In this document: one piece after another, positions 4,540 through 58,257 of the stretch
How the letters are laid out: each line of letters starts with the position of its first letter
Position numbering within the stretch: the stretch's first letter is position 1
Virus record (IMG/VR): IMGVR_UViG_3300046008_000242
Coordinates: 185,363 to 249,362 of that record
Strand: one strand, 5' to 3'
Origin: a virus
Taxonomy: Duplodnaviria; Heunggongvirae; Uroviricota; Caudoviricetes
DNA: 64,000 bases
Translations under genes and position numbers: made by a program
Notes under the pieces: model-generated
The model's database searches: none
Seen by the model: only the letters and a program-made list of their open reading frames with translations
Told to the model about the DNA's origin: nothing

Positions 4540-4548
4540 TTTTAATTC

Positions 4549-9071: not shown

Positions 9072-9596
9072 TCAATCATACACATACTCTAATGTATCAG
9101 TCTTCAAACCGTTCTCGATAATATCACAAAGAACATCTCCAACATACATCTCAAACTCTTCATCGATTGTTCCTACTCCATCAGGAACATAATGTACATT
9201 ATACTTGAATCCCAACTCTCTATCGTCAGATTCAATAGGTGGTATATGTATATCCTCGTATGACACAATATATCCATTAAACTTACCCTTCAACTCAACT
9301 GCTGTAATCTTATCACCTAAGTCATTGATATAACTGATTACTTCATACTTGTTAGCCGTTGGCTGTAAATCTTTCATGATAATCGGAATTGCTGAGATTT
9401 CAATGGTGTTATCGTATTGGTCTTCGACGGTAATGTTATCGTATCCAATTTTGTTAAGATGATTGATTACTTGGTCGAATCGCTGGTCATCTGTTATATC
9501 GGGAAATGTTGACAACTCTCTGATATTTGACTCTTGGTCTTCGATTACAATTGAATCTTCTAAGTATCTTACAGTGAAATTAGTCATCCAAATCAT
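9072..9596 (-). CDS. hypothetical protein, 174 aa, directly downstream of uvsX (the gene 40 position in T4 order)
   Basis: ORF track; overlaps the uvsX stop. No recognisable motif. Confidence 0.5.
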   Translation of the reverse strand: MIWMTNFTVRYLEDSIVIEDQESNIRELSTFPDITDDQRFDQVINHLNKIGYDNITVEDQYDNTIEISAIPIIMKDLQPTANKYEVISYINDLGDKITAVELKGKFNGYIVSYEDIHIPPIESDDRELGFKYNVHYVPDGVGTIDEEFEMYVGDVLCDIIENGLKTDTLEYVYD

Positions 9597-11055
9597 CCAT
9601 GTCTAGGTTATCTAATTCGTCTGTAATTGAATCGTCCGTCAACATTGTTCCATTAGCAATTTTATATCTGTCTTCAACCCATTGTTTAAATTTGTCAGAT
9701 TGGAGAATAGGATTCCAAAATTCTTTTGTATTGGTTTCTTTCAAACGATAATTTTTATCTTCAATTTCTCCAGTTTTTGTGTCGATTCGTTGATACCAAC
9801 CATTTTTCGGTTTAATGCAAATTCCTGCTTCTAATGCCATATCCATCAAACCAGACCATTTGGAAATCCCATTATCATAATTTACACAAATTGGAATTTT
9901 AGATTTTTCTTTAACAAATCTTGATTTTTCGACATTGATGATGAAATTATATCCAATAACATCAGTTCCATCTTTTTCTTGTTGTCGACCAATAATAAAA
10001 ATTGTATTGGCAGAATAATAGATTCCAGTATTATGAGTAACTACCCCATTTTCTAAAATATAATGTTCAACATCTTTGACTGAAATGTCATACACTTTAC
10101 GAGTTCCAACAGAAATAATACTTTTAATTTTGGAATTGCGTTGATTGTCTATACAAACCAATGTTTTATCTGTCGATAAATTTGACGCTTCAACCCATCC
10201 AGAATCTGTCAAGAAAGGATGATTTTCTGAAACAACACATTTATATCCATCTTCAAATTCTATTTCAAAACATTCAGGTTCTCCAACTTCTAATGTATCT
10301 GGATTCCAAATATGAGTAACTGGTTTAGAACCATTTAATGTTTTAACTAATTCTCCAACTTCAATATCTTCAATTTTTTTAATTGAACCATCAAACATGA
10401 TAAGATTAGTCCCAGCTTCTAAACAACCTCCACTAACTACAGCTGAGGGGAACAGCGACATTGAATCGTAAGTGTGATTCACACAAATCATTGGAATATC
10501 ATATTTAGTTAGATATGGAGTAATCATACGGAAACATGATTTTAATTGTTTTGCTCTAGTTAGATCCGATACGGACTTCTCTGCCAGTGAATCTTCGCGC
10601 TCTTTCCGTGAAGACATGTTACCTATTGAATCTACAACGAAAATTACATTTGTCTTTCTATCTAATGCATTTAATTGAGCCATCACTTCAAATTTGAATT
10701 CTTCGATATCCATAATGGGTACATGTAATACTCTTTCAATATCTATTTCGAATGATTCGAAGTAGGACTTTGGTGATCCGTACTCCGTATCCATAAAAAT
10801 TAAAACAGCATCATCATGTTTATCTAAATATGCCTTTGCCATAACTAGACAAAGCGACGTTTTGAACGATTTCGATTTTCCGCAAGCTAAAATTAAACCG
10901 CTAGAAATACCACCATATAAAGAACCAGATAACGCAATGTTTAATGCAGGAACATCTGTAATACATACGTCGCCACCATTAACAATTTTAGATTCCGACA
11001 ACACCGCAGTTTCTTTAATTGTGCTTGTTTTTTTCAATCTTTCCATTAAACTCAT
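9580..11055 (-). CDS. uvsX: UvsX RecA-like recombinase interrupted in frame by a 132-aa mini-intein (extein about 359 aa)
   Basis: Extein is collinear with T4 UvsX (Walker A ACGKSKSF, VCVNHTYDS, SANTIFIIGRQQEKDG, NVEKSRFVKEKSK, KPKNGWY). The insertion CLEAGTNLIMFDG...GVVTHN sits between SGG and TGIYYS, exactly where T4 has GGG|TGPMYS. Confidence 0.9.
   Translation of the reverse strand: MSLMERLKKTSTIKETAVLSESKIVNGGDVCITDVPALNIALSGSLYGGISSGLILACGKSKSFKTSLCLVMAKAYLDKHDDAVLIFMDTEYGSPKSYFESFEIDIERVLHVPIMDIEEFKFEVMAQLNALDRKTNVIFVVDSIGNMSSRKEREDSLAEKSVSDLTRAKQLKSCFRMITPYLTKYDIPMICVNHTYDSMSLFPSAVVSGGCLEAGTNLIMFDGSIKKIEDIEVGELVKTLNGSKPVTHIWNPDTLEVGEPECFEIEFEDGYKCVVSENHPFLTDSGWVEASNLSTDKTLVCIDNQRNSKIKSIISVGTRKVYDISVKDVEHYILENGVVTHNTGIYYSANTIFIIGRQQEKDGTDVIGYNFIINVEKSRFVKEKSKIPICVNYDNGISKWSGLMDMALEAGICIKPKNGWYQRIDTKTGEIEDKNYRLKETNTKEFWNPILQSDKFKQWVEDRYKIANGTMLTDDSITDELDNLDMDDLDD
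10030..10425 (-). mobile_element. mini-intein (Hint domain only, no endonuclease domain) inside uvsX
   Basis: N-terminal Cys codon (TGT; plus strand aca at 10423-10425). C-terminal His-Asn (plus strand att/atg at 10030-10035) followed by a +1 Thr. 132 aa, too short for a LAGLIDADG or HNH insert. Confidence 0.8.
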
Positions 11056-12747: not shown

Positions 12748-13086
12748 ATGCATATAACGCAGAAGTCAATAAACGAATTATACAATCATTACAAGGGTTC
12801 AGCTAAGTCAAGATCTATCCCATTCAGGTTGACAAAGGTAGATTTCCACGAATTGTCCTTTCCATTGACATGTCCTATTTTGGGAATACCATTAAGATTT
12901 AATACAGGAAAGAATATGACGGATGATTCATACTCATTGGATAGGATAGATTCATCAAAGGGATATACAAAGGAAAATGTGATTGTTGTGTCAAATAGAG
13001 CAAATATCCTGAAGAGAGATGCTACATTGGAGGAGTTACAAATGATGGCTAAATTTTATGCTGAATTGGATTCTAGTGGAGTGTAA
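12748..13086 (+). CDS. small HNH-family endonuclease, 112 aa
   Basis: SLDRIDSSKGYTKENVIVVSNRANILK matches the HNH_3 core. The real ATG is at 12748 after an AAGGCAAGAGA Shine-Dalgarno; the track ORF 12604.. is an upstream read-through. Plus strand. Confidence 0.65.
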   Translation: MHITQKSINELYNHYKGSAKSRSIPFRLTKVDFHELSFPLTCPILGIPLRFNTGKNMTDDSYSLDRIDSSKGYTKENVIVVSNRANILKRDATLEELQMMAKFYAELDSSGV

Positions 13087-13092
13087 TCTAAT

Positions 13093-13138
13093 ATGACATA
13101 GAGTTGATTGGGTGATATACCGAACGTTCCACTAGAGG
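13093..13138. repeat. 45-bp motif ATGACATAGAGTTGATTGGGTGATATAC-GAACGTTCC-ACTAGAG (contains the 10-bp palindrome GGAACGTTCC)
   Basis: About 90% identical to the copies at 24283, 24738, 25176 and 25634, and to the inverted copy at 28776. Lies immediately 3' of the small HNH gene. Confidence 0.7.
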
Positions 13139-13151
13139 ACAATTAGATGGA

Positions 13152-21111: not shown

Positions 21112-21172
21112 TTCATTGGATTCCTCCAACTTGAAATCTATTATAAAGGTTATCTTTAACATCGAAAGAATT
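21112..21172 (-). promoter_or_regulatory. PeSL-like early promoter cassette
   Basis: Minus strand reads ATTCTTTCGATGTTAAAGATAACCTT-TATAAT-AGATTTCAAGTTGGAGGAATCCAATGAA. It combines a TTTCGA -35-like element, a 16-17 nt spacer, TATAAT, and a leader hairpin UUGGA-GGAA-UCCAA. It overlaps the 3' end of the lipase ORF. Confidence 0.6.
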
Positions 21173-22878: not shown

Positions 22879-23123
22879 CGGTTTTTCAAAATATCAGCAG
22901 TTTTTTGATTCATATATAAACCATCTGATGTTTGGTAAATTTCACCATCAGGGATACAGTTCACCCAATTAAATCCAAAGACGGTTTCTAACCAATCATC
23001 TATTTTATTTCGAAATGTATCAGACACCATAACATTCTGCGATAATGATTCCTTTCTTACCTTTACATTAGGTGCTACCACAATTTTAGTTCCATTTAAC
23101 CAACCAATATTATTAAGATTCAT
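22869..23123 (-). CDS. hypothetical protein, 84 aa
   Basis: ORF track. Confidence 0.45.
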   Translation of the reverse strand: MNLNNIGWLNGTKIVVAPNVKVRKESLSQNVMVSDTFRNKIDDWLETVFGFNWVNCIPDGEIYQTSDGLYMNQKTADILKNRWC

Positions 23124-23437
23124 GATTGTTCACCCAGTGTCTTAATATTAATTAAACCAATTATACAAATTGGATACGAATCTTTTCCTCTGTAGAATTG
23201 GAGATTCATAATAGATTGGTTAGGAAATGTTCCAGATTGTATAACATAATCGAATGGTACAATCATATTTTCATGATATAATGTACATTCATTAACGTAC
23301 CAGATAATTTCATACTTCTTTCCATCGATGACAAATTTCCTAGATCTATCGAAGGTGTCGTCACCCATTTCAGAACAAAGTAAAGATATACTTGGGTGAT
23401 TTAATACAGTGTCTAATTGTTCAATACTGATGTTCAT
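23120..23437 (-). CDS. hypothetical protein, 105 aa
   Basis: ORF track. Confidence 0.45.
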   Translation of the reverse strand: MNISIEQLDTVLNHPSISLLCSEMGDDTFDRSRKFVIDGKKYEIIWYVNECTLYHENMIVPFDYVIQSGTFPNQSIMNLQFYRGKDSYPICIIGLINIKTLGEQS

Positions 23438-23697
23438 AAATGTCCGTCGATAAATGATAAGATTTCTTCAGCAGAAGACAATTTAACAGAATCTTGAATG
23501 TCGATATATAATCCGTTCTTCTGGATGTTGGAGATGTAACAACTTTCTGTTACATCATTGACATACACATCAACACTCAATGATTTGTTGGATAAGTTGA
23601 TTCCTCTTGTTGTACTCAATTTAAACGGAGAAACCAAGAATCTTTCTCTTAACAACTCATCGAATTGTAATTTATTGTGGAATGTTTCTTTTGACAT
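23434..23697 (-). CDS. hypothetical protein, 87 aa
   Basis: ORF track. Confidence 0.45.
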   Translation of the reverse strand: MSKETFHNKLQFDELLRERFLVSPFKLSTTRGINLSNKSLSVDVYVNDVTESCYISNIQKNGLYIDIQDSVKLSSAEEILSFIDGHL

Positions 23698-23701
23698 GAC
23701 T

Positions 23702-23893
23702 TTACCCTTTACAAACCATTGAATAACCTAAGATGGAACCTTCATTCATCTTACGCAATAAGATTTCATATTCTTGTTTTGTTCTGAGACATTCAGAATA
23801 TGTTGGAAAATCAAATTTGATTTCTTTTGTGATTGTTTGATTTGGGAATGCGGAGATACCCAAGGACAAGATGGAAATGATTAAAGTAGTCAT
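23702..23893 (-). CDS. small secreted protein, 63 aa
   Basis: N-terminal signal-peptide-like MTTLIISILSLGISAF. Confidence 0.45.
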   Translation of the reverse strand: MTTLIISILSLGISAFPNQTITKEIKFDFPTYSECLRTKQEYEILLRKMNEGSILGYSMVCKG

Positions 23894-23921
23894 ATGTTAA
23901 CCTCTAATGTGAATTGAAAGA

Positions 23922-23980
23922 ATCATTGGTGAACCAACTTGAAATCTATTATAACGGTTTTAATTGGAGTCGAAAGAATT
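23922..23980 (-). promoter_or_regulatory. PeSL-like early promoter cassette (variant)
   Basis: Plus strand reads cattggtgaaccaacttgaaatctattataacgg...gtcgaaagaatt. The stem here is TTGGT/ACCAA. Confidence 0.5.
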
Positions 23981-24098
23981 ATTATGGGATATGATTAAAA
24001 TATATGGATGTATCTATGTTGAAATAAAGTCGAGGAATACACTAGAACATAATATAGTAATATTAAATGACCTAACGAACATAACTCAAAGGATCGAC

Positions 24099-24134
24099 AT
24101 AGTCTATCATACTACTCTTTCTACCATTTCGAAA
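24099..24134 (-). promoter_or_regulatory. sigma70-like promoter of repeat unit 1
   Basis: Minus strand TTTCGA-N17-TATGAT. There is no terminator before PeSL 23922, so it probably reads into gene 23702..23893. Confidence 0.4.
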
Positions 24135-24394
24135 GGAGTATCGGATGTTGATGTTTACACATTCTATGTCTAAGATTACTCTTTCGATGATTAATGTATC
24201 GAAATAATCTTCATATATTCTTTCGATATGTTGAATTAACAGCAGACGTCCATATTTGGATTATATGGAACGTAAATTACACATGACATAGAGTTGATTG
24301 GGTGATATACAGAACGTTCCACTAGAGTGGATTAACGTCCAAATAATGGATGATTTGATGTATATTATTGGTAGAGAAAATGTAAATTATACGC

Positions 24395-24574
24395 AATAAA
24401 AATCCCGAAGGAACTTTTGGTTCTCAACGGGATCTAAATGTGGCTCGAAGATTTTATATGGGAATATTGTTGTAAATGAATGTCTATAATATGAATAATA
24501 AACGTCTAAGTTATGATATAGTGATATTAAAACCATATAAACATAATTAATATACCTAACTCAAAGTGTCGACA
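24395..24574 (-). ncRNA. candidate ORF-less small RNA, about 180 nt (repeat unit 2)
   Basis: Minus-strand promoter TTGACT-N17-TATAGT (plus-strand coordinates 24581-24609). About 175 nt downstream lies an intrinsic terminator (hairpin AUCCCG...CGGGAU plus UUUUUAUUGCG, 24395-24433). The longest ORF is under 20 aa. Confidence 0.45.
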
Positions 24575-24825
24575 TAGTCTACTATAACGAGGTTTCATCG
24601 AAAAGTCAAGAGAAATCTTTAATTGATTATATCAAGCTCGATGCGTATTTGTATCCTTTCGATGATTAAGACTCTTTCGATATGTCATTATTACAAGAAA
24701 CGTCTATATTTGTTGTATATTGTTCGTTTATTTTATATGACGTAGAGTTGATTGGATGATATACAGAACGTTCCACTAGAGTCCATTAACGAGCAAATAA
24801 TGGATGTTATAAGAAACCTTTACGC

Positions 24826-25000
24826 AATAAAAATCCTGTTTAGATATTATTCTAAACAGGATGAAATGGGGTTCGAATGATTTTATATGTCGATAATGAA
24901 TATAATAAACATCTAAATGCATATAATAAAGTCGAGGAAGACACTTGATAATATTAAACCATCTAAATGTAAACAACGGATATAACTCAAAACGTCGACA
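24826..25000 (-). ncRNA. candidate ORF-less small RNA, about 175 nt (repeat unit 3)
   Basis: Promoter TTTCGA-N17-TATACT (25007-25035). Terminator hairpin AUCCUGUUUAGA...UCUAAACAGGAU plus UUUUUAUUGCG (24826-24862). Confidence 0.45.
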
Positions 25001-25263
25001 TAGTCTAGTATAATGGAGTTTTATCGATTTCGAAAGGAGTTTAAGACTCTGGTAGATATTGAATCGATGTTTATTTGCATCCTTCGATGATTAAGATTAC
25101 CATTAAAGACTCTTTCGATATGTTGATTATACATTGTCGTTCCATATTTGTCTATTATTGCTCGTTTATTTTACATGTCATAGAGTTGATTGGGTTGTAT
25201 ATGAAACAATGCATTAAGATGGATTATTGGACAAATAATGGATGTTATAAGAAACCTTTACGC

Positions 25264-25451
25264 AATAAAAATCCCACTCAGAAACTAATCTGGTGGGATG
25301 ATTAAATGGATTCGAAGGTTTTTATATGGGAATAATGTTGTAAATGATAGTCTTAATATGATTAGTTAATGTATAATAAACGTCTAAGTTACATTAAAAC
25401 ATAATATAGTAATATTAAATGACCTAAAGAACATAACTCAAAGGATCGACA
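25264..25451 (-). ncRNA. candidate ORF-less small RNA, about 188 nt (repeat unit 4)
   Basis: Promoter TTTCGA-N17-TATGAT (25458-25486). Terminator hairpin AUCCCACC...GGUGGGAU plus UUUUUAUUGCG (25264-25299). Confidence 0.45.
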
Positions 25452-25840
25452 TAGTCTATCATAATGGAGTATTAGAGATTTCGAAAGGAGTATCTTTCCG
25501 TGTATATTACATACTCGATGTCTAAGATAACTCTTTCGATGATTAAGATATCTCTAACATCGAAACATTCTTTCGATATGTCATTATTACACAGGAACAC
25601 TTATATTTGTTGATTAAACAATGTTAATTATACATGATGTAGAGTTGATTGCTCCGTATATTAAAGATTCCATTAGAGTGGATTATTGGACAAATAACAG
25701 ATGGTTTGGTGTTTATTCTATATAAAATAACAATACACAATAAAAATCCAGGTTTGAGTTTCTGACTCTTTCGATGTCGAGATTATCAGTTTGGATATAT
25801 CGTACAAATAAATATCTTTATACAACAAAAAGGAACCTAC

Positions 25841-28684
25841 ATGAAAACATTCTCTGAATTACGCAAACAAATAAACGAAAACAGTCTATATACATCTCAA
25901 CAGGAGAAAGATGACTTCCTGAAAGATAAGAAGAACATCGTCAATGCATTCCTTTATTCGTTTATCGGTAATCTATCATTATACAACAAAGACCCAGCAA
26001 AAGCTAAACATTATTTTGTTGGCGATAAGAAATTACAGATCCAAAACATCACTGATGATAACAATGATGCATCGTTAATCCTAAAGATTATGCATGATGA
26101 AGGTGGTTTCAAGAATTCAAACACAGCCAACAATCTAACCAAACTGTTGGCAAAATTGAAAGTTTCTGATGTAACATTAGATGATACTCTAATGAGAAGT
26201 TGGTTGGCAGATATCTCTCCTTCTTTCCATTCGGTTATTCCAACAGAATTGAAAAAGACTGTTGATGATTACACTCATGGTATCACCAGTTTCGATAGAT
26301 TAAGTTACAAATTGTACAAACATAAAACTGCGTATGGCGATGGAGAGTACCTAGCATTGGCTAAGAAGGTTGGTCGAATTGATAGACATACACATAAACC
26401 AAAAGTTGTTAGTCAAACTCAACCTGCTCCTACTGTAACTCCAGTTACACCAACAATCTCTAATCCTCAGATTGTGGTTCCGGTGGTTAATACAACAACT
26501 GTAACGTCTATTACTCCACCAGATGTTGTAGATGAACCTGTGGTGTTAGAACCACAACCAGAAGTTAAACAATTCAATCAAGAATTGTATGATAGAGTTT
26601 TAAAAAAAACCAAATATCTTTCGACATCTTATCTTGTTCAATTAGATGAATCTGATGTTAAAGAATTGGTGGAAGATTCTGAAGTGTTGATGAAATTAAT
26701 GGAAGATTATCCTAGATTCTTTGGCGATTCTTTAAATCCCTATCAATTTGAAATGGCTAGAGATTATATAATGAAAAATTATACAGAAGAATCAATTATT
26801 AAATTGGGTAAAAATAAAGAAAACTCAATTTGGATTAAATATGATATAAAACAATCTATCAAAATTCTGAATAAAAGAAACATAGACGCCACTAAAGTTT
26901 ATGATGCAATGATTATTGCTCCATATATTTGCGACAAAGATATTGGTATATCTGGGCAACAGATTCTTGATTTTTATGAAAAAAATAAAATTCTAATTTC
27001 ACCAGATAACGGTAATAAGATTGCGCGAGATTTCCCTGAGATATTAGTTGATGCTGTTAAGTTGACAATCAAGGACATGGGTGTCGGATATGTATCTACA
27101 ATGGCTGTTAAATTGAATGAACAACAGATTGATGATGCATTTCCTATTGATAACAAATTATTGGCTCCATTAAATGTTATCTTAACGGGTAGATTGTATA
27201 AAGATTCTTCTGAATTACTAAAGAAATACAATAACAATGAAGTATTGATTATTCAAGCATTAACGGACACTAGCACCCCACATTTTACACCTTACATAAA
27301 TTCATTGAATAAATTGTTCTTCGAGGATATGGATAAATGGTATCCATGGGAACGAAAATATAATTACATGAAACAATTATTAACTAAACCAAATGCCATT
27401 GATTATTTCAACGATAAATTCAAATATGCATTTACTGATGATGGAGTTTTTGATTATTTCTCAGATAAAGAAAGATTAGATGGTATCTCATCATCTTTAT
27501 TCGATTTAATGGTGACCAATTATAAAACAAAATCTGATATTGTTGATTCTTTATTCAATGACCTTGGCGACAAGATTAAATCTAAAGTGAAAAAGAACTT
27601 CGATTCAACATTTAAAGTTATGCACGATTTGAAAAATAGTGCGTTACCAATTAAAGAAGATCTAGACGCAAAGGGTATTAAGAAGATTTTAGAATTCAAC
27701 GGGATTGACCTTAGTGTTATTTCTGGTAATAAAATGAAATTCTCCAAGAATAAATCGTTGAGTCAATCTATTAATGAATATATGAAAGATGGCACCAACA
27801 TCATCGAACCATTAAAAATTGTTGAATTAAAAACAACAGAAGCAGAAAATAAGAAGGTGACTGAGAAGATTGTAAATGAAACTCATTCTGGTGGCAGACA
27901 CGGAGATATCTATCCGTTAATCTTACGTCAATTTGAAGTTCATCTACCTGACGTTCAATTCCAAGAGTTTAAAGAATTGATGATTAAGAATAACACACAT
28001 TCTGAAATTATACCCGCATTCCATGGAACTGGTTCTATAGCAGCCAATATGATTCTTAGATATGGATTTAAAGTTATTCCTGAAAATGATAATTCAGGAA
28101 TTGGTGTTGCTGGTAGAATGTTAGGTGATGGTATCTACTTTGGAACCAATATTGATAAAGTGTTACAATATGTAGGTAATGCTGGAATGACTAGACGATT
28201 GGGAACGACTGGATATGTATTTGAAATGGAAAATGAATTGGGTGTGCAGGGTGAAGATTACACTTCTGCTGGTTTAGGTGGAGATAGAATTGTTTCTCCT
28301 GAATGGTGCGTCTATAATGCCAATAAACAATTAAAAATTATTAAGGCTTACGAAGTGAAATTAGTTGATAGAGCAGAACTAGATAAGACGTTGAATGAAG
28401 CAACCAATAATAGAATGATGTCATTTAAAGAATTCAATAATGCCAAGAAGAACAATTATACATCATACAATTTCTATGACAGAAATGTTATAACACCAGA
28501 TGGTAAAATCATCAAATCATCAGATGTAAATGATAAGACGTTTAAGAAAGGAATTAGAGTTGAGATTCGCGGGAAGATTACATCGATTATCATACCAACT
28601 CGACAATTAGAATTCAATGATATATTATCTTGTTATGATTTACAAGATAATGCATTAAACAAGTATCTTAAATTGGTGAATTAA
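25841..28684 (+). CDS. 947-aa multidomain protein with a C-terminal PARP-like (H-Y-E) ADP-ribosyltransferase domain
   Basis: Plus-strand ORF with ATG at 25841 and an AAAGGAA Shine-Dalgarno. The C-terminus reads AFHGTGSIAANMILRYGF...GRMLGDGIYFGTNIDK...SPEWCVYNANKQLKIIKAYEVKL. This aligns with the PARP1 catalytic signature LWHGSR...GKGIYFAD...YNEYIVYD..LKYLLKL, with H, the Y of GIYF and E all conserved. A Pro/Thr-rich linker PAPTVTPVTPTISNPQIVVPVV sits near residue 200. Confidence 0.75.
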   Translation: MKTFSELRKQINENSLYTSQQEKDDFLKDKKNIVNAFLYSFIGNLSLYNKDPAKAKHYFVGDKKLQIQNITDDNNDASLILKIMHDEGGFKNSNTANNLTKLLAKLKVSDVTLDDTLMRSWLADISPSFHSVIPTELKKTVDDYTHGITSFDRLSYKLYKHKTAYGDGEYLALAKKVGRIDRHTHKPKVVSQTQPAPTVTPVTPTISNPQIVVPVVNTTTVTSITPPDVVDEPVVLEPQPEVKQFNQELYDRVLKKTKYLSTSYLVQLDESDVKELVEDSEVLMKLMEDYPRFFGDSLNPYQFEMARDYIMKNYTEESIIKLGKNKENSIWIKYDIKQSIKILNKRNIDATKVYDAMIIAPYICDKDIGISGQQILDFYEKNKILISPDNGNKIARDFPEILVDAVKLTIKDMGVGYVSTMAVKLNEQQIDDAFPIDNKLLAPLNVILTGRLYKDSSELLKKYNNNEVLIIQALTDTSTPHFTPYINSLNKLFFEDMDKWYPWERKYNYMKQLLTKPNAIDYFNDKFKYAFTDDGVFDYFSDKERLDGISSSLFDLMVTNYKTKSDIVDSLFNDLGDKIKSKVKKNFDSTFKVMHDLKNSALPIKEDLDAKGIKKILEFNGIDLSVISGNKMKFSKNKSLSQSINEYMKDGTNIIEPLKIVELKTTEAENKKVTEKIVNETHSGGRHGDIYPLILRQFEVHLPDVQFQEFKELMIKNNTHSEIIPAFHGTGSIAANMILRYGFKVIPENDNSGIGVAGRMLGDGIYFGTNIDKVLQYVGNAGMTRRLGTTGYVFEMENELGVQGEDYTSAGLGGDRIVSPEWCVYNANKQLKIIKAYEVKLVDRAELDKTLNEATNNRMMSFKEFNNAKKNNYTSYNFYDRNVITPDGKIIKSSDVNDKTFKKGIRVEIRGKITSIIIPTRQLEFNDILSCYDLQDNALNKYLKLVN

Positions 28685-28775
28685 GATAGAATGATCCCAG
28701 AATGTAATGTTCTGGGATTTTTATTGGATAAGAGTTACATTAAACCATCCATTATTTGTCTAATAATCAATCTTA

Positions 28776-28832
28776 ATGGAACGTTCTGATATTAACCCAA
28801 TCAACTCTATGTCATACAAAAGAACGTTCCAT
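28776..28832. repeat. inverted copy of the 45-bp GGAACGTTCC motif, with an extra GGAACGTTC half
   Basis: Its reverse complement tgtatgacatagagttgattgggttaatatcagaacgttccattaag matches the direct copies at 24283 and 13093. Confidence 0.7.
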
Positions 28833-28847
28833 ATAACCAAATCTTAT

Positions 28848-28886
28848 CCAATAAAAATCCCGAAGGAACTTTACGTTCTCAACGGG
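28848..28886 (-). terminator. intrinsic terminator
   Basis: Minus-strand hairpin AUCCCGUUGAGAACGUAAAGUUCCUUCGGGAU plus UUUUUAUUGG. It is a near-copy of the 24395 terminator. Confidence 0.6.
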
Positions 28887-28894
28887 ATCTTATT

Positions 28895-29362
28895 TCATTC
28901 TTTAATTGGTTCTACTTTAAAATTAACAAATGTCAATTTAGTGCCTTGTAATTTACAAGATAACTCTTCGATCTTCTGTATCTCATCATCACTTGGCGTA
29001 TACATAATTGATACATGTGGTATGTATTCGGAATACGAATGTTTATATCCGATATTGACCAATGCATTAAACTGGGATACTAGATCTGGTGATTCTAATG
29101 TCAACGCAACAGCACCCCATTTAGAACCTTTCTCTCCAAGTAATTTACAGCCAGATACAACTCCAACAAATTTATCATGTAATGGTTCCACTTTAAATGC
29201 TGGATTAGATACATCATACATTAACGTTACATGTAAATCATCGATGACGCTTATTCCACTTTCATGAAAAAACTCTTTCAATTGTTTTGAATCATCATCC
29301 GATAATCTAACAGCCACGTATCCACCTTTGTGTTGTTTCCATTCTTCAAATGTTAGCATCAT
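28895..29362 (-). CDS. 2H phosphoesterase, Acb1-like (candidate anti-CBASS/anti-Pycsar cyclic-nucleotide phosphodiesterase)
   Basis: 155 aa with two H-x-T/S-x motifs: DLHVTLMY (His at residue 44) and IPHVSIMY (His at residue 116). Size and spacing match the 2H fold of T4 Acb1 (gene 57B). Confidence 0.6.
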   Translation of the reverse strand: MMLTFEEWKQHKGGYVAVRLSDDDSKQLKEFFHESGISVIDDLHVTLMYDVSNPAFKVEPLHDKFVGVVSGCKLLGEKGSKWGAVALTLESPDLVSQFNALVNIGYKHSYSEYIPHVSIMYTPSDDEIQKIEELSCKLQGTKLTFVNFKVEPIKE

Positions 29363-29425
29363 TAGATGACCTCAGTTGAATTTGCAATGTCACCTCATCC
29401 TTCTCTATTCATGTATTTCCCCTCT

Positions 29426-30805
29426 TCAAATATGTACAATAAGATTATGACTTGCGCGTGAACAAGCGACGTAAAAACTTCTCAATGCTTCCTCTTTGTT
29501 ATTATTTAAAAAGATATCCTTTCCATGTATAAACACATTTTCGTAGCTTGAACCTTGGGATTTGTGGGAAGTTACGCAATACACTGGTCTAATATCAGAA
29601 AAATGTTTGGATACAAGATAGAACAATTCCCAATTTATTCCAAACATATTAGTTCTGGCGCATCCTGACATGAAATCCGTCAACATTTTCAATTCTGCTT
29701 TATCATAAGGAATAACAAATGATTGTCTGGATTTATCTGGTGTCCTAATTTCAACAAGATATCTTCTGACTATGTATCTACCAAATAAATGGTCCTTATT
29801 GATTTGACTCTGCGTTGGTTCAAATATAAATGGTAGGATTTCCTTAATAGATAAGACTGTTGCTTCTGTTTCAGTTGGACAGATTACCTTATCCCATCCA
29901 TCATATTTGAATTGGTTCTTATCAAAATCAACAAATGTCCCAACAGCATGTAATGGTTTAGAAAACGCAATACATTCTCCAACAGCAAATGGTTCTTTTA
30001 GATCTGGATATCTAATCTTCTGGATAGTCGAGTTAAAGAAATCCACTGTAACATTACGCCAAGCAACTACTCGACATAAATCAGGATCTGAATCATATCG
30101 TTTATCTGTAAATGCATGGCTGATTACAGATAACATTTCATCCAATTCCATGGTATGAATTCCAATATCGCCTGTCTCATTAGTCTTATTGATAACTGGT
30201 GGAGCCTTGAAAACATTATTATCCAGGTTATGTCTAATTGATGTACATAAGTCTAAGATAGGATTACCATGTTTCTGTCTGATGACTTCCGTTAGATATA
30301 CATTATTATCTAATTTGAATGTTGGTGATTCAGTTTCATTAACAGGATTCAACTGATTGTTATCCCCCATGAAGATAACCTGAGCACTAGATGAGAACAA
30401 GACGGCCTTATTGATGTAATCAAATAATTCTGAATCAACCATTGACATTTCATCGCAGATAACCAGATCGTATTTGTCGAATGTTGAATTACCACTGAAA
30501 GATAGTTTCTCATTACCATTTTTATCAATTTTCATTGTTAAACCAAGTAATGAATGGATAGTCCTACATTCAACAGACAATCCATGTTTCAATGACATGT
30601 TCTTAAGAACTTTGGTCGCCTTGTTGGTAGGAGAAGTGAAACAGACATTTAATGTATCTGGTAGATAATCCAATAGATGATTGATAAGGGTTGTTTTACC
30701 GCAACCAGCCGGAGCAATCAGACAGATGTATTCTTGGTTCTTCTTGACCACAAAATCAATCAGTCTATGCAAAATTACATTTTGGTCTTTAGTTAATTTA
30801 ATCAT
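29426..30805 (-). CDS. dda: Dda-like SF1B DNA helicase
   Basis: APAGCGKTT (Walker A), FTSPTNKATKVL, VICDEMSMV, FMGDNNQLNPV, VTSHKSQGSSY. The track start at 30829 is a TTG; the first ATG is at 30805. Confidence 0.85.
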   Translation of the reverse strand: MIKLTKDQNVILHRLIDFVVKKNQEYICLIAPAGCGKTTLINHLLDYLPDTLNVCFTSPTNKATKVLKNMSLKHGLSVECRTIHSLLGLTMKIDKNGNEKLSFSGNSTFDKYDLVICDEMSMVDSELFDYINKAVLFSSSAQVIFMGDNNQLNPVNETESPTFKLDNNVYLTEVIRQKHGNPILDLCTSIRHNLDNNVFKAPPVINKTNETGDIGIHTMELDEMLSVISHAFTDKRYDSDPDLCRVVAWRNVTVDFFNSTIQKIRYPDLKEPFAVGECIAFSKPLHAVGTFVDFDKNQFKYDGWDKVICPTETEATVLSIKEILPFIFEPTQSQINKDHLFGRYIVRRYLVEIRTPDKSRQSFVIPYDKAELKMLTDFMSGCARTNMFGINWELFYLVSKHFSDIRPVYCVTSHKSQGSSYENVFIHGKDIFLNNNKEEALRSFYVACSRASHNLIVHI

Positions 30806-31019
30806 TTGCACTTTGTTCTTTCCAATCAAGCCTTAAATCATTTTGTTTAAGATATCCCACTATAGAATCATGGATTACATTTCTGAAACATTGATGTAAT
30901 TTGAATCCAGGAATCTTAATTCCAATGTTCTTTGAGATCCATACAGAAACTTCTTTTTCTGTATAATTGACCAATTCGCGTATCTGGTGGTCTTTTAATC
31001 CATTCATATCAACCAACAC
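30798..31019 (-). CDS. hypothetical protein, 73 aa
   Basis: ORF track. Confidence 0.4.
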   Translation of the reverse strand: MLVDMNGLKDHQIRELVNYTEKEVSVWISKNIGIKIPGFKLHQCFRNVIHDSIVGYLKQNDLRLDWKEQSAND

Positions 31020-31398
31020 CTTTATGTTCTAACCATCTATTCCTAAATTCCCATAACACAGTAGCCTGACAATTATTCCCTTCTTTCCCGAATATATCAG
31101 ATAACCCAGAATACTTTGTCAATTCATCTAACAACAGAGGATTTTCCTGTAGATATTCCAACCATAACTGTTTATACAATGTTGTACATTCTTTCATGTT
31201 GATAATCGAATGGAGTTTCTGATATTGTTTACATGATTTGGGATCTAACCCAGTAACTCCATCATCAAACACTTTAGATGATTGATAGATGTTCTCAATA
31301 GTATCGTTCCTTCTTTTAATGTAAGCAAAGAAAGTCGAAAATCGTTTATCTCCTTTCGATGAACATTCAAGGAAAGGTTCTTCCCCGCGTCTAACCAT
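31009..31398 (-). CDS. hypothetical protein, 129 aa
   Basis: ORF track. Confidence 0.5.
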   Translation of the reverse strand: MVRRGEEPFLECSSKGDKRFSTFFAYIKRRNDTIENIYQSSKVFDDGVTGLDPKSCKQYQKLHSIINMKECTTLYKQLWLEYLQENPLLLDELTKYSGLSDIFGKEGNNCQATVLWEFRNRWLEHKGVG

Positions 31399-31822
31399 CT
31401 AACTGTATCACCAATTCAATTGAACCTGGATATGAGATAACAGTAACTCCGTCGATCTCGTGTGTTTCTTTCTCATCTAATAGGTCTAAATTACAATCAT
31501 CCACAATATAACCAAACGATGTTAGTCGTTTGAAAAATGTATATGCTACATGATGTGGTGGATACATTTTGGTCAATTCATATGGTATCTCAAGCGTAAT
31601 GGCATCATTCATGGAAGCGTCTTCGATACAATCTTCGTATATACCATAAACATCTTCCACTCCAATATAGAAAATTGGGTTAAATTGTTTAATATCATGA
31701 TGAAGTATATGATTCTTTAAGATAACATCCATCTTAATATCCCAAGCAACCAATGTTCTTTCTAATGGATCCGTCTTTCTCATAAGACCAGATAATGTTT
31801 TTAATGCTTTAATGTTAATCAT
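31391..31822 (-). CDS. hypothetical protein, 143 aa
   Basis: ORF track. Confidence 0.5.
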   Translation of the reverse strand: MINIKALKTLSGLMRKTDPLERTLVAWDIKMDVILKNHILHHDIKQFNPIFYIGVEDVYGIYEDCIEDASMNDAITLEIPYELTKMYPPHHVAYTFFKRLTSFGYIVDDCNLDLLDEKETHEIDGVTVISYPGSIELVIQLDG

Positions 31823-31880
31823 AAAATATCCTATCTAAAAGAAAACCGATATGAACTTAATCATATCGGTTTGAAAAATG

Positions 31881-32453
31881 TTATACGTTGATACCAAATT
31901 GATTTGCCAATGTTTTTAATCCACCAGCATATCCTTGACCAACAGCTTTGAACTTCCATTCATTATTGTATCTATAAACCTCACCAAAAATCATTGCCGT
32001 CTCTGATGACATATCTTCAGTCAAATCAAATCGTAATACTTCAATTCCAGTGTCTTTATTGACTAATCGAATATACGCATTTTTAACTTGACCGAAATTC
32101 TGACGGCGTTGTTCCGCATCATGAATCGTCACAGTAATACTAATCTTATCGACAGACGAATCAACTAATGTTAATTTAATTGTAATCTGTTCATCATCAC
32201 CTTCACCAGACCCAGTCAAATTATCGCCAAGATGTTCAACCGAATTATCAACAGATTTCAATTGATTGTAGAAGATGAAATCAGAATCACTTCTAACTTT
32301 ATCATTTTTCAAAAGAAATGCCGAAGCATCTAAATCAAACGGACTACCATCAGTGGTTCTAGCATCCCAACCTAATCCAACAATAATGTTTGTTAAAGAT
32401 GGATCTGTTTTAGTTAATGAAAGATTGTTGCCTTTTTGTAATGTTAATGCCAT
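31881..32453 (-). CDS. TerD-domain stress-response protein
   Basis: [27 protein letters not shown] ... [15 protein letters not shown] ... [14 protein letters not shown] matches the TerD/TerE/TerZ pattern. Confidence 0.8.
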
Positions 32454-32464
32454 GATATGAATTC

Positions 32465-33148
32465 CTATAGATAAGTTTTTTGAATTGTTGAAATGATTCC
32501 GTCTAATGTTCTATCGTTAGTGGGTTCTCCGATGGCATTAAACTTCCATGAATCTTTGTGTCTATACAATTTACCAAGAACCATAGACACTTTATTGTTG
32601 AACGTTGAATCTTTTGCGATATTGTATCCAGCTAATACATCATCCACTCTAGTTGGAGTTCCTTCATAAATTCTAATTGAAGCAAATGGAATACTATCAA
32701 ATTGTTGACCTCTATATGAATTCAAAACAATAAAGATTTGGTCAACAGATGATTTCACTCTGGTTAGATCTAATGTGATGATTTCATTATCTAAACCATC
32801 ATCTCCGTTTGAATCTCCAACTAGGTCGTCGCCAGAATGTTTAATTCCAGTTCCATTTAATTTACCATAATAGATTGTCTCATCTTTAGAATTACCTTGG
32901 AATGTAATACAACTAACATCCAAATCAACAGCTGTTCTTCCAATCATACCCCAATTGACACCAACGCAGACGTTTGTTAATGATTTCCCATTCTTTTCTA
33001 ATGAAATACGTTGACCTTTAACCAGAGTGAGTTTAGGTTGTTTCTGTTGTTGAACTTGTTCGATTGAATTCTGTACAATTTGTCTAGTTGTATTAACAGA
33101 CCCTTCGATGTTATCGACCACTGTTCTGATTGCGTCAAAAATGCTCAT
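32465..33148 (-). CDS. TerD-domain protein (second, divergent paralogue)
   Basis: [24 protein letters not shown] ... [19 protein letters not shown] ... WKFNAIGE. Confidence 0.7.
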
Positions 33149-33223
33149 AATATATTTGTTTCCTTTGTTGACTTATTGTTAAACAAGTCAACATTATAAT
33201 GGATTTATTTAAAAAGTAAAGGA

Positions 33224-34693
33224 TTAAAGATTATCTGATACAATCTTACGAATTTCAGCTAATGATGTTTCCTTAACCAACTTGCCGTCTTTGAATACAA
33301 CTTCTAAACATCCATGTTTTTCATGCTTTGGTTCAACATTATCATTCAATGTATATTGACCATTTTCATGAGATACCATCAATAGACCTTTAGCTGATTT
33401 CTTAGTCCCATCATCCGTTTTTGGATCTTTGAAGATAACTCTTGATTTACCGTTAATTATTGCATAAGTGGATTTAAGTGCAAAACCATGAGTATCTCTT
33501 GTCACATATCCCAACGAATACGAACCAATTCCAAATACTATATTATTAGAAGCAAATCCTTTTTGTTCTAATCTGACGAAAATAGATTGTTGTCGATCTA
33601 ATGTGATAGAATCGCCATAGATAGTGCCAATTTTTGGATTTAATACTTTATAACCTTTAGAGTTAATTGTTCCACCAAAAGTATCCCATAAACATTCAAT
33701 TAAACCTTTGTCTTCTGGCAAACATCCACCTATGATAGGATATATTCCACAAATAATATCAACTGGGTCGCCTGAATCAGGTCTTATAACCAATTTACCT
33801 TCTCGGGATTCAATTCTATCCTTTAATGTAGGAAGATATTCAGTAACAACTTTCCAAAAATCATAACTATCCGCCACATATGAAACGATACCAGTTGGAT
33901 AAACTTCTGTTATAATTCGGGTCAACGTTTCTAATTCATCTTCGTGTCCTCCTGAACAAACTACACTATGTTCGCTTGCTGGTACAGAATATGCTATGTC
34001 CGTTGTTGCTCCATAATATTCTTTAGCAAGTAAGATAGCTGGTATCGTATCTGTTCCTTTTGAACCAGTTGCAATAAAAGCAAACCCAGAAATTGCAGCA
34101 GCTTCTTTACATTGCATACCTCTCATACTAAAATCATGTTGTTGGAAAGGAACAAATGAATTATCATCACATGTCTTTTCTGAAAACTCTAAACTTTTAT
34201 TATAAAATGCTCGTGATGTGGTTGCGGTTGAACAAGGTAACCAAAGTTCTGCGGATAATACAGTTTCAATCATATTAGTCACCCAGAAGAATTCAGGTAA
34301 CGTATTTTTAATTGTTAAAACAGGTACACCATATGGAACAAACGAACCTTCTGGTAACGCTTTAATTTCAATTGGAAGATACCCTAAGTCATATAACGAT
34401 TCAATATGACTGACATTAGTTTCTCCTAATGAATCATCAACAATTTCTTTATATGACTGGATAACGAAATCTTTGGGTTGTTTAAAGAATGTTTCGCCCC
34501 ATTCGCGGATTAAATGTTTAATAATAAAGTATTGTAATCCAATAAAGTAAATACCTTTAGATCCAGGAATGTTTGATAATCTACCCGAACGAGGTGTAAA
34601 GTTAGAATAAATTAATTCCGTCCCTTTTGGATATTGATTAACATGTGACACTTTATAAAAATCTTTTTGTAATGGTGCAAAATTTGTAGACAT
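33224..34693 (-). CDS. nicotinamide phosphoribosyltransferase family protein (NAMPT/NadV-like; alternatively a Namat-type NAD-reconstitution enzyme)
   Basis: 489 aa. N-terminal DFYKVSHVNQYPKGT (the NAMPT DSYK.THY.QYP motif), GTDTIPA, SVPASEHS, and the overall NAMPT length. The track start at 34705 is a TTG; the first ATG is at 34693. Confidence 0.8.
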   Translation of the reverse strand: MSTNFAPLQKDFYKVSHVNQYPKGTELIYSNFTPRSGRLSNIPGSKGIYFIGLQYFIIKHLIREWGETFFKQPKDFVIQSYKEIVDDSLGETNVSHIESLYDLGYLPIEIKALPEGSFVPYGVPVLTIKNTLPEFFWVTNMIETVLSAELWLPCSTATTSRAFYNKSLEFSEKTCDDNSFVPFQQHDFSMRGMQCKEAAAISGFAFIATGSKGTDTIPAILLAKEYYGATTDIAYSVPASEHSVVCSGGHEDELETLTRIITEVYPTGIVSYVADSYDFWKVVTEYLPTLKDRIESREGKLVIRPDSGDPVDIICGIYPIIGGCLPEDKGLIECLWDTFGGTINSKGYKVLNPKIGTIYGDSITLDRQQSIFVRLEQKGFASNNIVFGIGSYSLGYVTRDTHGFALKSTYAIINGKSRVIFKDPKTDDGTKKSAKGLLMVSHENGQYTLNDNVEPKHEKHGCLEVVFKDGKLVKETSLAEIRKIVSDNL

Positions 34694-34714
34694 AATATCT
34701 CTCAATAATTTATT

Positions 34715-38341: not shown

Positions 38342-38400
38342 TTCATTGGATTCTTCCAACTTGAAATCTATTATAAAGGTTATCTCAGACATCGAAAGAT
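38342..38400 (-). promoter_or_regulatory. PeSL-like early promoter cassette
   Basis: Near-identical to the 21112 copy (ttcattggattcttccaacttgaaatctattataaaggttatc...catcgaaag). It lies 35-95 bp upstream of the start at 38308. Confidence 0.6.
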
Positions 38401-43235: not shown

Positions 43236-43290
43236 AAACTTCTAACTTGAAATCTATTATAAAGGCTATTTCTAACATCGAAAGAAAAAT
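43236..43290 (-). promoter_or_regulatory. PeSL-like early promoter cassette
   Basis: Plus strand reads cttctaacttgaaatctattataaaggctatttctaacatcgaaagaaaaatc. Confidence 0.55.
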
Positions 43291-53729: not shown

Positions 53730-53790
53730 AGTGAATCCCTCAACTTCAGAATCTATTATAAAGGTTATTGTAATCATCGAAAGAATTATT
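53730..53790 (-). promoter_or_regulatory. PeSL-like early promoter cassette (variant stem)
   Basis: Plus strand reads gaatccctcaacttcagaatctattataaaggttattgtaatcatcgaaagaatt. Confidence 0.5.
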
Positions 53791-58253: not shown

Positions 58254-58257
58254 TTTA

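Follow-up and report, generated by a model that had tools for sequence, protein, structure and literature searches.

A tandem array of putative transcription-control cassettes in the genome of an uncultured T4-like phage

Results

The minus-strand region at 23.99-25.80 kb of the 64-kb window, by which we mean the whole stretch of viral DNA that was analysed, carries four head-to-tail direct repeats of about 450 bp each. We put at roughly 55% the probability that this array of about 1.8 kb consists of four stacked copies of a clade-specific transcription-control cassette, i.e., an enlarged and iterated variant of the promoter-early stem-loop (PeSL) cassettes of T4-like phages, rather than of dedicated RNA genes. 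Since a relative harbors at least 23 copies of the cassette, usually located before real genes, the array looks like a stack of gene-less regulatory modules and not like a structured small-RNA family. The window phage is a distant T4-like phage without a cultured relative, belonging to an uncultured, 249-kb clade; the DNA polymerases closest to its own, those of an uncultured marine virus and of cyanophages, are 41-42% identical to it, and neither the array (megablast and blastn) nor 25 kb of the window (megablast) had a match in a phage collection.

Organization of the array

The start-to-start distances of the units are 454, 438 and 459 nt for one repeat family (D1) and 475, 426 and 451 nt for another (D3), and the mean column identity among the four units is 73%, which bears out the tandem repeat described in the first-pass annotation of this sequence. 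The 13-mer TCGACATAGTCTA has four exact copies in the window, all of them inside the array. Tandem Repeats Finder did not report the array, because the copies are too diverged. A CRISPR array consists of identical short repeats of 25-40 nt with unique spacers of similar length between them; the units at issue are about 450 bp long and homologous over their entire length, so the earlier statement that this is not a CRISPR array stands.

Each cassette has the order terminator, conserved block of about 110 nt, three or four boxes, promoter and A+T-rich leader; block and boxes put some 270 nt between the tail of the terminator and the -35 element. Conservation measured by column is higher in the terminator tail, the block and the promoter/start region than in the transcribed body, which is roughly on a par with the box region. 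The top edge of the array (25738-25800, minus strand) contains a terminator-type tail, GGATTTTTATTG (25738-25749), without a proper stem, its fold being irregular and reaching only -10.7 kcal/mol, together with one ATCGAAAG box (25768-25775); the first cassette of the relatives' arrays is likewise without a terminator tail. Abutting this edge, and divergent from the array, a PARP/Alt-like gene of 947 aa begins at 25841 on the plus strand. A cluster of anti-defence and NAD-metabolism genes lies beside the array, and transcription switches direction at the array, as it also does at locus L155 of the family.

Promoters and start region

All four units carry the promoter hexamers that had been described for them, and the general form of this promoter (P1) is TTTCGA or TTGACT, N17, TATrmT on the minus strand. 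In unit 4 (P1 at 25446-25486), TTTCGA (25481-25486) and TATGAT (25458-25463) are followed by AGACTATGTCGA (25446-25457); in unit 3 (24995-25035), TTTCGA is paired with TATACT (hexamers 25035-25007); unit 2 (24569-24609) has the minor variant TTGACT (24604-24609) with TATAGT (24581-24586), a variant also present in five cassettes of the relative; and the gene-proximal unit 1 (24094-24134) again has TTTCGA and TATGAT (24134-24106), with no terminator downstream. The conserved +1 region claimed earlier is confirmed, as AGACTATGTCGA, which contains one extra TCGA, is invariant after every P1 in the window; transcription is predicted to start at the A/T of AGACTATG.

A standard promoter of this phage (P2; about 23938-23975, minus strand), composed of TTTCGA, N16 and TATAATAGATTTCAAG, closes the unit-1 leader and would feed a 63-aa ORF (23702-23893, minus strand), the first gene served by the array, which has the Shine-Dalgarno sequence AGAGG and is matched by a 64-aa ORF at the syntenic position in a relative. 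The class TTTCGA-N16-TATAATAGA has 12 matches in the window against 0.97 expected, all on the minus (gene) strand. Thus the cassette promoter belongs, judging by its elements, to the phage's own promoter class, and is presumably active. In the empty units the second promoter has decayed, and its -35 remnant leads straight into the terminator.

Middle promoters of the T4 MotA-dependent type have a TGCTT Mot box at -30 and depend on phage-encoded MotA and AsiA. The box of the cassettes is TCTTTCGAT, not TGCTT, and tblastn with T4 MotA and AsiA found no match either in the window or among the relatives' loci, 213 kb that cover those genomes in part. We also rejected a Bacteroidetes-type promoter (a TAnnTTTG reading of TAGATTTC), whose spacing is wrong and which P1 does not fit.

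Phased boxes and the conserved block

The consistent upstream feature of the units is a set of direct ATCGAA(A/G)G boxes, three or four in each, about 21 bp apart. The clusters, all on the minus strand, span 25515-25577 in unit 4 (ATCGAAAG at 25570-25577 and 25533-25540, an inverted TTTCGAT at 25559-25565, and CATCGAG at about 25515), 25060-25119 in unit 3 (ATCGAAAG at 25112-25119, ATCGAAGG at 25081-25088, and CATCGAT at about 25063), 24635-24681 in unit 2 (ATCGAAAG at 24674-24681 and 24656-24663, and CATCGAG at about 24638), and 24160-24227 in unit 1 (ATCGAAAG at 24220-24227 and 24181-24188, and an inverted TTTCGAT at 24198-24204). Against 2.8 expected occurrences of ATCGAAAG, the window has 16, half of them (8/16) inside the array. 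In the aligned cassettes the boxes sit at about -123, -101, -81, -61 and -26, the TCGA cores being spaced by 22, 20, 20 and 35 nt in nearly all cassettes. The clustered palindromes that the first-pass annotation took for operators are less general: GGAACGTTCC has no exact occurrence, AGAACGTTCC is found in two units and TTTCGAT-N9-ATCGAAA in one only, while the direct boxes are common to all units. Since the ATCGAA box is the reverse complement of the standard-promoter -35 element TCTTTCGAT, the boxes upstream of P1 are presumably bound by whatever recognizes that element, and we regard them as candidate operator sites. The inverted boxes were also considered as -35 elements of promoters firing in the opposite direction, and this was rejected as there is no -10 element at the right distance.

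The conserved block occupies 25640-25703 in unit 4 (with CATCTGTTATTTG, TCCACTCTAATGGA and CAATCAACTCTA in this order), 25181-25244 in unit 3, 24289-24352 in unit 1, and 24743-24806 in unit 2, where it takes a variant form (B), TTTGCTCGTTAATGGACTCTAGTGGAACGTTC; all are on the minus strand. A module of terminator plus block, lacking boxes and P1, stands alone at 28690-28850 on the plus strand just past the 947-aa gene, so the block is a separable element. A partial stand-alone block lies between convergent genes at 13085-13150 on the minus strand, and block-only modules occur at gene junctions, one of them adjoining a gene that is located elsewhere in the window phage. A 7-bp hairpin in the block (UCCAUUA/UArUGGA) was discarded as an RNA element, being too weak, with one-sided G.U-compatible changes only and no double compensations.

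Terminators and predicted transcripts

The first-pass annotation had assigned to each unit a promoter-to-terminator cassette for an ORF-less transcript of about 180 nt. This holds for three of the four units, in which a strong terminator follows the predicted start after 175-190 nt and UUUUUAUUG follows each hairpin. The predicted minus-strand transcripts are about 190 nt for unit 4 (25263-25452; hairpin at 25271-25299 and then a U-tract, -17.1 kcal/mol), 177 nt for unit 3 (24825-25001; hairpin at 24833-24862, -15.8 kcal/mol) and 182 nt for unit 2 (24394-24575; hairpin at 24400-24435, -15.4 kcal/mol). The claim fails for unit 1, whose promoter (start at about 24100) has no terminator and leads via P2 into the 63-aa ORF. 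Compared with about 31% overall, the leaders show a modest dip in GC content, which falls to 20% (units 2 and 4) or about 27% (unit 3).

Searches against Rfam found no family in or near the array, either with E ≤ 10 on positions 23000-27000 or at the gathering score on the entire window. When 15 empty transcripts were folded jointly by RNAalifold, the terminator hairpin, with compensatory changes at three of its seven pairs, was their sole consensus structure; the proposed covariance analysis thus brought out nothing that is shared beyond the terminator. Each of the three window RNAs has a minimum-energy fold of its own, and their z-scores relative to shuffled sequences are -4.2 for unit 3 and about -1.7 for units 4 and 2, terminator included. 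Empty transcripts range in length between 133 and 197 nt and contain many indels, though some linear motifs are kept in their bodies, e.g., TAGACGTTTATTAT in those of the window and TATATTACTTCAAGAyTCTTTAT in those of the relative.

Reading frames

The statement that the units hold no ORF above 20 aa is literally untrue, as same-strand ORFs of 22, 23, 25, 30, 49 and 66 aa overlap them; these six have no Shine-Dalgarno sequence, two cross terminators, and no ORF overlapping the units shows in-frame conservation. The nucleotides of the leader motif TATATTACT are conserved, and ATG-initiated ORFs read them in three different frames. Coding by the block or the leader on either strand was rejected on account of stops, missing starts and inconsistent frames. 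Accordingly, we consider it very improbable that the units encode tiny proteins, either a leaderless peptide from ATGTCGA (MSTFQL... in relatives) or a block micro-ORF (M-E-[RS]-x-x-[YI]-x-[PS]-I-N-S-...). It is true that an ATG lies at the predicted transcription start of every copy, that hydrophobic ORFs with between 11 and more than 55 codons begin at this ATG in the relative, and that the start (ATG/GTG) and the I-N-S motif of the block micro-ORF are kept in most copies examined. However, the start-site frame ends after four codons in each of the window units and in the relative's gene-proximal ones, ORF lengths are erratic, the block micro-ORF has no Shine-Dalgarno sequence, variable stops that give 5-50 codons and a 16-nt deletion in one copy, and the reverse-strand frames carry stops or no start.

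Copies in a related phage

Our cassette comparison covers two phage species. In the related phage, whose neighbouring gene shares about 71% amino acid identity with that of the window, a four-unit array lies at the syntenic site (L010) beside the orthologous 933-aa gene. At least 23 distinct P1 cassette copies, in arrays of 2-5 units, are found at nine or more loci of one 234.7-kb relative; the cassette motif (terminator plus P1) is conserved across 22 or more cassettes, and the upstream 300 nt or so can be aligned in all of them. Units of the window share 67% identity among themselves and those of the relative 69%, compared with 61% for units of different phages, and the TTGACT variant has a different rank in the two arrays; one-to-one orthology of the units is not supported.

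Array-terminal cassettes of the relative lie directly before genes, namely, a DNA ligase gene (L007), small ORFs (L002 and L006) and, in L001, a 166-aa ORF with a weakly nucleotidyltransferase-like ORF after it. A Shine-Dalgarno sequence and a start codon at the end of the cassette, reached via the second promoter, are seen in the array-last cassettes, and are absent from three of the four window units and about half of the relative's copies. The first-pass annotation had allowed that the units would be gene-loss remnants should their homologs in relatives encode small proteins; this was found in part, as one relative cassette (L004) holds a 213-aa HNH homing endonuclease (Pfam E = 4.7e-11; PHROG 99, E = 9e-32) between promoter and terminator. 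The JGI gene caller placed no gene in the 1.84-kb array of locus L143. The L002 array lies between co-directional genes, and that of L147 adjoins sequence without any match in the window at E ≤ 1e-20.

A search for related loci with the 947-aa protein alone gave no match, and one with a two-sequence alignment returned only two already known contigs; a protein database contains only four relatives of this protein. A metagenome scan with an 18-nt pattern with 15 specified bases, TAGACTATGTCGANNNTT, yielded 120 single chance matches, and none of the 15 loci listed for inspection had another landmark. Matches to the block pattern in other viral contigs (L148-L162, except the family loci L151 and L155) were likewise taken as chance, as they had no other landmark.

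Discussion

The closest known counterparts of the cassettes are the PeSLs of T4-like phages (RB49/phi1, T4/PST and KVP40/nt-1), which include degraded copies (PMC2839356, PMC4122927) and in which, as figured, the promoter comes right after the stem-loop and the element closes with a Shine-Dalgarno sequence and a start codon (PMC4122927). Both systems combine a terminator stem-loop with a sigma70-type promoter, here in the internal units as a hairpin of -15 to -17 kcal/mol, a U-tract and P1. Both have a consensus peculiar to the clade and many copies in each genome, which lie between genes in variable regions; the at least 23 copies, the HNH cargo, the block at the junction of a relocated gene and the L147 array correspond to this in our case. 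Both are tied to insertion or replacement of small ORFs, include degraded copies, and vary in stem sequence with pairing kept. On the other hand, our unit measures about 450 bp counting its leader, and the 270 nt of conserved sequence between stem-loop and promoter deprive it of the compactness of a PeSL; gene-proximal cassettes carry a second promoter, stacks are 2-5 deep without an intervening gene, and there is no sequence similarity to the published PeSL consensus sequences. The earlier view that such an array is not a standard T4 feature has to be narrowed: terminator/promoter cassettes are known in T4-like phages, while units of this size, phased boxes and tandem stacking without genes go unmentioned in the available parts of PMC2839356 and PMC4122927.

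In the cassette model that we favor, the intrinsic terminator heading a cassette would stop incoming transcription, and would be followed by the non-coding block of about 110 nt, by three or four phased boxes, and then by P1 and the A+T-rich leader. In the gene-proximal copy the leader would continue into P2 and the leftward operon, whereas in the three distal copies it would enter the terminator of the next cassette, giving rise to "empty" units with short terminated RNAs as by-products. Dispersed homologous cassettes may thus act as linkers that insulate and then re-start transcription, and their homology may let recombination insert, delete or stack modules, from which the empty units would have originated. 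The presence of four units at the syntenic site in both phages, and of arrays at many loci with copies about 30% diverged, suggests that the empty units are maintained and are not junk; therefore, a pure by-product view of their RNAs is not proven. It also counts against the cassette model that conservation in the leader body does not drop far below that of the box region.

This bears on the reading of the units as genuine small-RNA genes, whose RNA of about 180 nt would act in trans as a regulator or decoy, e.g., by base-pairing via a loosely conserved linear motif, with the copies boosting dosage. The units resemble phage and bacterial trans-acting sRNA genes in that an ORF-less stretch of 130-200 nt lies between a promoter of its own and a Rho-independent terminator, and the anatomy given in the first-pass annotation (promoter, start, ORF-less stretch and terminator) stands. 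Three complete units without a credible ORF, the recurrence of empty units in arrays at many loci in both species, the persistence of some linear body motifs, and the one window RNA that folds far beyond its shuffled controls are all consistent with this reading. The inference of RNA genes is nevertheless weak, because the same promoter and leader drive protein genes, the consensus of the 15 transcripts is limited to the terminator, individual folds disagree and lengths vary; furthermore, there is no Rfam family, two of the three z-scores are about -1.7 even with the terminator, and the conserved leader motif is the upstream and -35 part of P2 in the gene-proximal copies. We therefore rate it as unlikely, albeit the least unlikely of the alternatives. 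Alternatively, the empty units might be neutral debris, not yet lost, their cargo having been removed by recombination between flanking cassettes or the units having arisen by unequal crossing-over; the cargo-bearing L004 endonuclease cassette, the decayed second promoters and the differences between the arrays of the two phages, including the L147 array beside sequence unmatched in the window, speak for this. But four units persist at the syntenic site in spite of about 25% nucleotide divergence of the neighbouring genes, and tail, block, boxes, promoter and start region are conserved in empty units that are 30-40% diverged overall, which is unexpected for unselected DNA in a compact phage genome; neutrality is thus a somewhat poorer candidate than RNA genes.

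Replication offers a different interpretation of the same elements. T4 oriF and oriG consist of a promoter and an A+T-rich unwinding element, oriE of an early promoter and evenly spaced 12-nt iterons, and T4 origins tend to lie at transcriptional divergence (PMC3016281). The cassettes resemble them in the promoter followed by an A+T-rich stretch that might serve for unwinding, with GC down to 20%, in the direct repeats evenly phased at about 21 bp nearby, as in oriE, and in the transcription-direction switch at the window array and at L155; the P1 transcript could form an R-loop in the leader, the boxes could serve as iterons for an initiator or accessory protein, and several arrays would supply the multiple origins typical of T4-like phages. 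In contrast to the T4 origins (PMC3016281), the cassettes are far more numerous, at least 23 per genome being many for origins, and are closed by strong terminators 175-190 nt downstream that would release the RNA; several arrays, e.g., L002, lie between co-directional genes, the GC dip is modest, and the repeats, being the same as the -35 element found in ordinary promoters, speak for transcription and not for replication. T4-type origins or primer promoters are thus doubtful, to about the same degree as neutral debris. No greater weight can be given to a broader version in which the arrays are functional DNA elements, i.e., multi-copy transcription-primed origins or regulator-loading arrays, where a putative protein recognizing the TCGA box, by which the -35 element of this clade's promoters is defined as well, would bind the phased iterons and couple early P1 transcription to an R-loop in the leader, the empty units being what functions and the downstream genes being incidental.

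If the cassette reading is right, this uncultured clade shows the reach of the "mobile regulatory cassette" idea, with a module of about 450 bp composed of a terminator, a conserved linker, phased sites identical to the -35 element and a promoter, present in about 25 copies per genome and in gene-less stacks. It would also provide a defined regulon and a DNA motif (ACATCGAAAG / TCTTTCGAT) for seeking a new phage or host transcription factor, and, as one copy carries a homing endonuclease, a natural system for asking whether such cassettes drive modular gene shuffling. Dispersed direct-repeat arrays between gene modules, sometimes enclosing genes, are also found in the Campylobacter group II T4-related phages CP21, CP220 and CPt10 (PMC4546147), where the number of units varies, assemblies break and the repeats are suspected recombination substrates; those units, however, are 72-86 bp long, with as many as 18 in one arm, and have not been described as cassettes of promoter and terminator, and the window phage is unrelated to these phages at the sequence level. 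Assemblies break at the array described here as well, and arrays of this kind, besides breaking short-read assemblies, would be mis-annotated as sRNA genes or ORFs.

Organization of the repeat array

We found four tandem copies of a unit of about 450 bp on the minus strand at 23.99-25.80 kb of the window. The repeat finder places them 454/438/459 nt and 475/426/451 nt apart, and their mean column identity in a MAFFT alignment is 73%; the 13-mer TCGACATAGTCTA occurs exactly four times, always in the array. Each unit carries a promoter consisting of TTTCGA (TTGACT in one unit), N17 and TATGAT, TATACT or TATAGT, followed by the invariant AGACTATGTCGA. The repeat finder, the alignment and the motif search agree with the outline in the first-pass annotation, namely, tandem units with a sigma70-type promoter and a conserved start region. 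The intrinsic terminator assigned there to every unit is present as a strong hairpin in three units (dG -17.1, -15.8 and -15.4 kcal/mol, with UUUUUAUUG after each hairpin), giving predicted RNAs of about 175-190 nt, but not downstream of the gene-proximal (fourth) promoter, in whose leader a standard phage promoter (23945-23975) is followed by the start (Shine-Dalgarno sequence plus ATG) of a 63-aa ORF. A terminator tail also stands at the upper edge of the array, without its stem. The units are not strictly ORF-less as had been claimed, since same-strand ORFs of 22-66 aa overlap them, but none of these ORFs has a ribosome-binding site or is conserved, and two cross terminators. Clustered palindromes upstream of each promoter did not prove general; what recurs consistently upstream is a set of three or four direct ATCGAA(A/G)G boxes. 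The window has 16 occurrences of ATCGAAAG versus 2.8 expected, half of them (8/16) in the array.

Promoters and boxes

Upstream of many minus-strand genes lies a stereotyped promoter, (T)CTTTCGAT-N-TATAATAGATTTCAAGTTGG; TTTCGA-N16-TATAATAGA has 12 matches (8 exact) versus 0.97 expected, all on the gene strand. Reverse-complemented, the boxes upstream of the unit promoter P1 (ACATCGAAAGA) give the -35 nonamer of the standard promoter, and boxes outside the array are mostly -35 elements of that promoter. Judged by its sequence, P1 belongs to the phage's own promoter class, differing from the standard form in its N17 spacing and its start region. We rejected the T4 Mot box as the identity of the box, because the sequences differ, and found no MotA or AsiA homologue in the sequence available from the window and the relatives.

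The standard promoter, TCTTTCGAT-N-TATAATAGATTTCAAGTTGG, is highly stereotyped over 4030-63318 (minus strand; e.g., 21137-21167, 38367-38397, 43253-43283, 53752-53782 and 60263-60293). By eye, the conserved stretch transcribed first contains a short hairpin in several copies (TTGGA-nGAA-TCCAA or TTGG-TTCA-CCAA), and at least two copies (21.1 kb and 38.4 kb) have a tiny ORF of 12-13 codons before the real gene.

Phage and genomic setting

The window, part of a JGI metagenome contig of 249,362 bp, belongs to a distant T4-like phage. Its GC content is ~31%, and nearly all of its genes lie on the minus strand. It encodes an apparently intein-containing UvsX, a helicase of the Dda type, a family-B DNA polymerase in split form, NAMPT, an RNA ligase and a 947-aa PARP-like protein. 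A nucleotide search of the phage collection gave no match to the window, and the best identity of the DNA polymerase is 41-42%. The UvsX/RecA-like gene (9580-11055, minus strand) is apparently intein-interrupted (Pfam T4_UVSX_C, RecA, Intein_splicing, PT-HINT and Hom_end_hint). The polymerase (55889-59811, minus strand) is encoded by a 517-aa N-terminal ORF (58258-59811) and a 366-aa C-terminal ORF (55889-56989), between which lies a 415-aa ORF (57006-58253) with no Pfam match.

The cluster adjoining the array (25841-34705) has an anti-defence and NAD-metabolism flavour, containing the 947-aa PARP/Alt-like protein (plus strand), Acb1 (28895-29362, minus strand), a Dda/PIF1-type helicase, a NADAR-DarT1-family ORF (31009-31398, minus strand) and NAMPT (33224-34705, minus strand). 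The T4 late-promoter motif is TATAAATA; AATAAATA, matching it at 7/8 positions, lies at 25807-25814 (plus strand), ~27 nt 5' of the start codon of the 947-aa gene, and AATAAATAAATAAATA occupies the equivalent position in the relative, which suggests an array flanked by a late gene on one side and an early operon on the other.

Conservation and dispersal of the cassette

Scanning viral contigs for the start-region motif, we identified four IMG/VR contigs of one related phage group, with genes about 70-80% identical to those of the window and 71% amino acid identity in the 947-aa protein. The syntenic site in one of them (locus L010) again harbors four tandem units plus the standard promoter, flanked by the 933-aa orthologue of the 947-aa gene and by a 64-aa ORF at the position syntenic with the 63-aa ORF; in 1.84 kb of syntenic array from a third contig, the gene caller called no gene. 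Further arrays in that genome have five units (L002, and L155 plus L007 if, as we infer, these two loci adjoin), four units (L006) or two units (L001, L004 and L147), and the fetched parts of one 234.7-kb contig hold at least 23 distinct copies. Genes directly follow the last cassette of each array, among them a DNA ligase gene, small ORFs and a 166-aa ORF with a weakly nucleotidyltransferase-like ORF behind it, and each of these last cassettes has a second promoter (P2) about 90-130 nt beyond P1.

Aligning 25 copies, we defined the cassette as a terminator with a variable stem and the invariant tail GGGATTTTTATTG; a ~110-nt block (CATCCATTATTTG..TAATCCAyCyTArTGGAA..CAATCAACTCTA); TCGA boxes at about -123, -101, -81, -61 and -26 from the start motif (spacing 22/20/20/35 nt); P1, with two -35 variants; the invariant start region TAGACTATGTCGA; and an A+T-rich leader, which in empty units (those without a gene) ends in a decayed -35 box abutting the next terminator. 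The block also stands alone in the window at 28690-28850 (plus strand), past the 947-aa gene, and partially at 13085-13150 (minus strand); another stand-alone block, in the relative, lies at a junction next to a gene located ~25 kb away in the window phage.

Compared over 311 columns, the cassettes of the window share 67% identity, those of the relative 69%, and cassettes of different phages 61%; the copies are therefore old and diverged rather than recent local duplications; the relative's gene-proximal cassettes cluster at 77-86%. The conserved signals are kept in empty units despite this divergence. The TTGACT variant occupies different ranks in the two syntenic arrays, so unit-by-unit orthology is unsupported.

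RNA, coding and regulatory readings of the units

The first-pass annotation took the units as genes for noncoding RNAs. Searches against Rfam had no hits to the array or its vicinity, whether at E <= 10 or with the gathering score as cutoff. Minimum-energy folds differ among the three window RNAs (z = -1.7, -4.2 and -1.8, terminator included), and RNAalifold on 15 empty transcripts from both phages (133-197 nt, with many indels) returned a consensus for the terminator hairpin only (7 pairs, 3/7 with compensatory changes). Column conservation is 0.78-0.84 in the tail and block, 0.74-0.84 in the promoter and start region, 0.63-0.71 in the leader body and 0.56-0.71 in the box region, where the low score is due to indels. 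In the block, the changes seen in a 7-bp hairpin are ten single, G.U-compatible ones and no double compensation, which is too weak a basis for claiming an RNA element. Nor did coding readings hold: the block's forward micro-ORF lacks a Shine-Dalgarno sequence, runs for 5-50 codons before a stop and loses its frame in one copy, and reverse-strand frames contain stops or lack starts. The ATG of ATGTCGA opens only a four-codon frame in the relative's gene-proximal units and in every window unit; in other units it opens ORFs of 11 to >55 codons, which read the conserved motif TATATTACT in three different frames.

The array is real and conserved in the sole related phage group found. With no consensus fold beyond the terminator, and with the same cassettes preceding genes, regulatory DNA accounts for it better than a new RNA-gene family would; the general kind of element is known, and its size and stacking are unusual. 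The units survive as sRNA genes only in the weak form of unstructured RNAs. A T4-type replication origin is an unlikely, putative alternative: the promoter with an A+T-rich leader and a modest GC dip, the evenly spaced repeats and the location at a switch of transcription direction together resemble T4 oriE, oriF and oriG (PMC3016281). The best-supported reading is that the stack is an enlarged, iterated variant of the promoter-early stem-loop (PeSL) elements known from T4-like phages (PMC2839356, PMC4122927); repeat regions of Campylobacter group II phages are a looser analogue (PMC4546147). As such, the array would be a stack of clade-specific terminator/box-cluster/promoter cassettes that may act as insulated, regulated restart points for transcription and as recombination linkers, the short RNAs of empty units probably being by-products.

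Cargo, adjoining sequence and assembly breaks at cassettes

Inside one cassette of the relative, between P1 and terminator, lies a 213-aa HNH homing endonuclease (L004, 617-1258, plus strand); it is free-standing with a cassette on either side, and the second flanking P1 (1593, plus strand) points at the 3' end of a convergent 532-aa ORF. Past a cassette terminator in L147 of the relative (4300-5250, minus strand), a ~0.9-kb ORF-poor stretch, apparently GC-richer than its surroundings, resembles a structured RNA or a decayed mobile element; Rfam gave no match to it (best E = 0.089), and the window lacks a counterpart. Short-read assemblies made independently for the window phage and the relative (Logan; L142 and L144) stop at the array edge, 150-195 nt 5' of the 947/933-aa gene; the repeats evidently break such assemblies.
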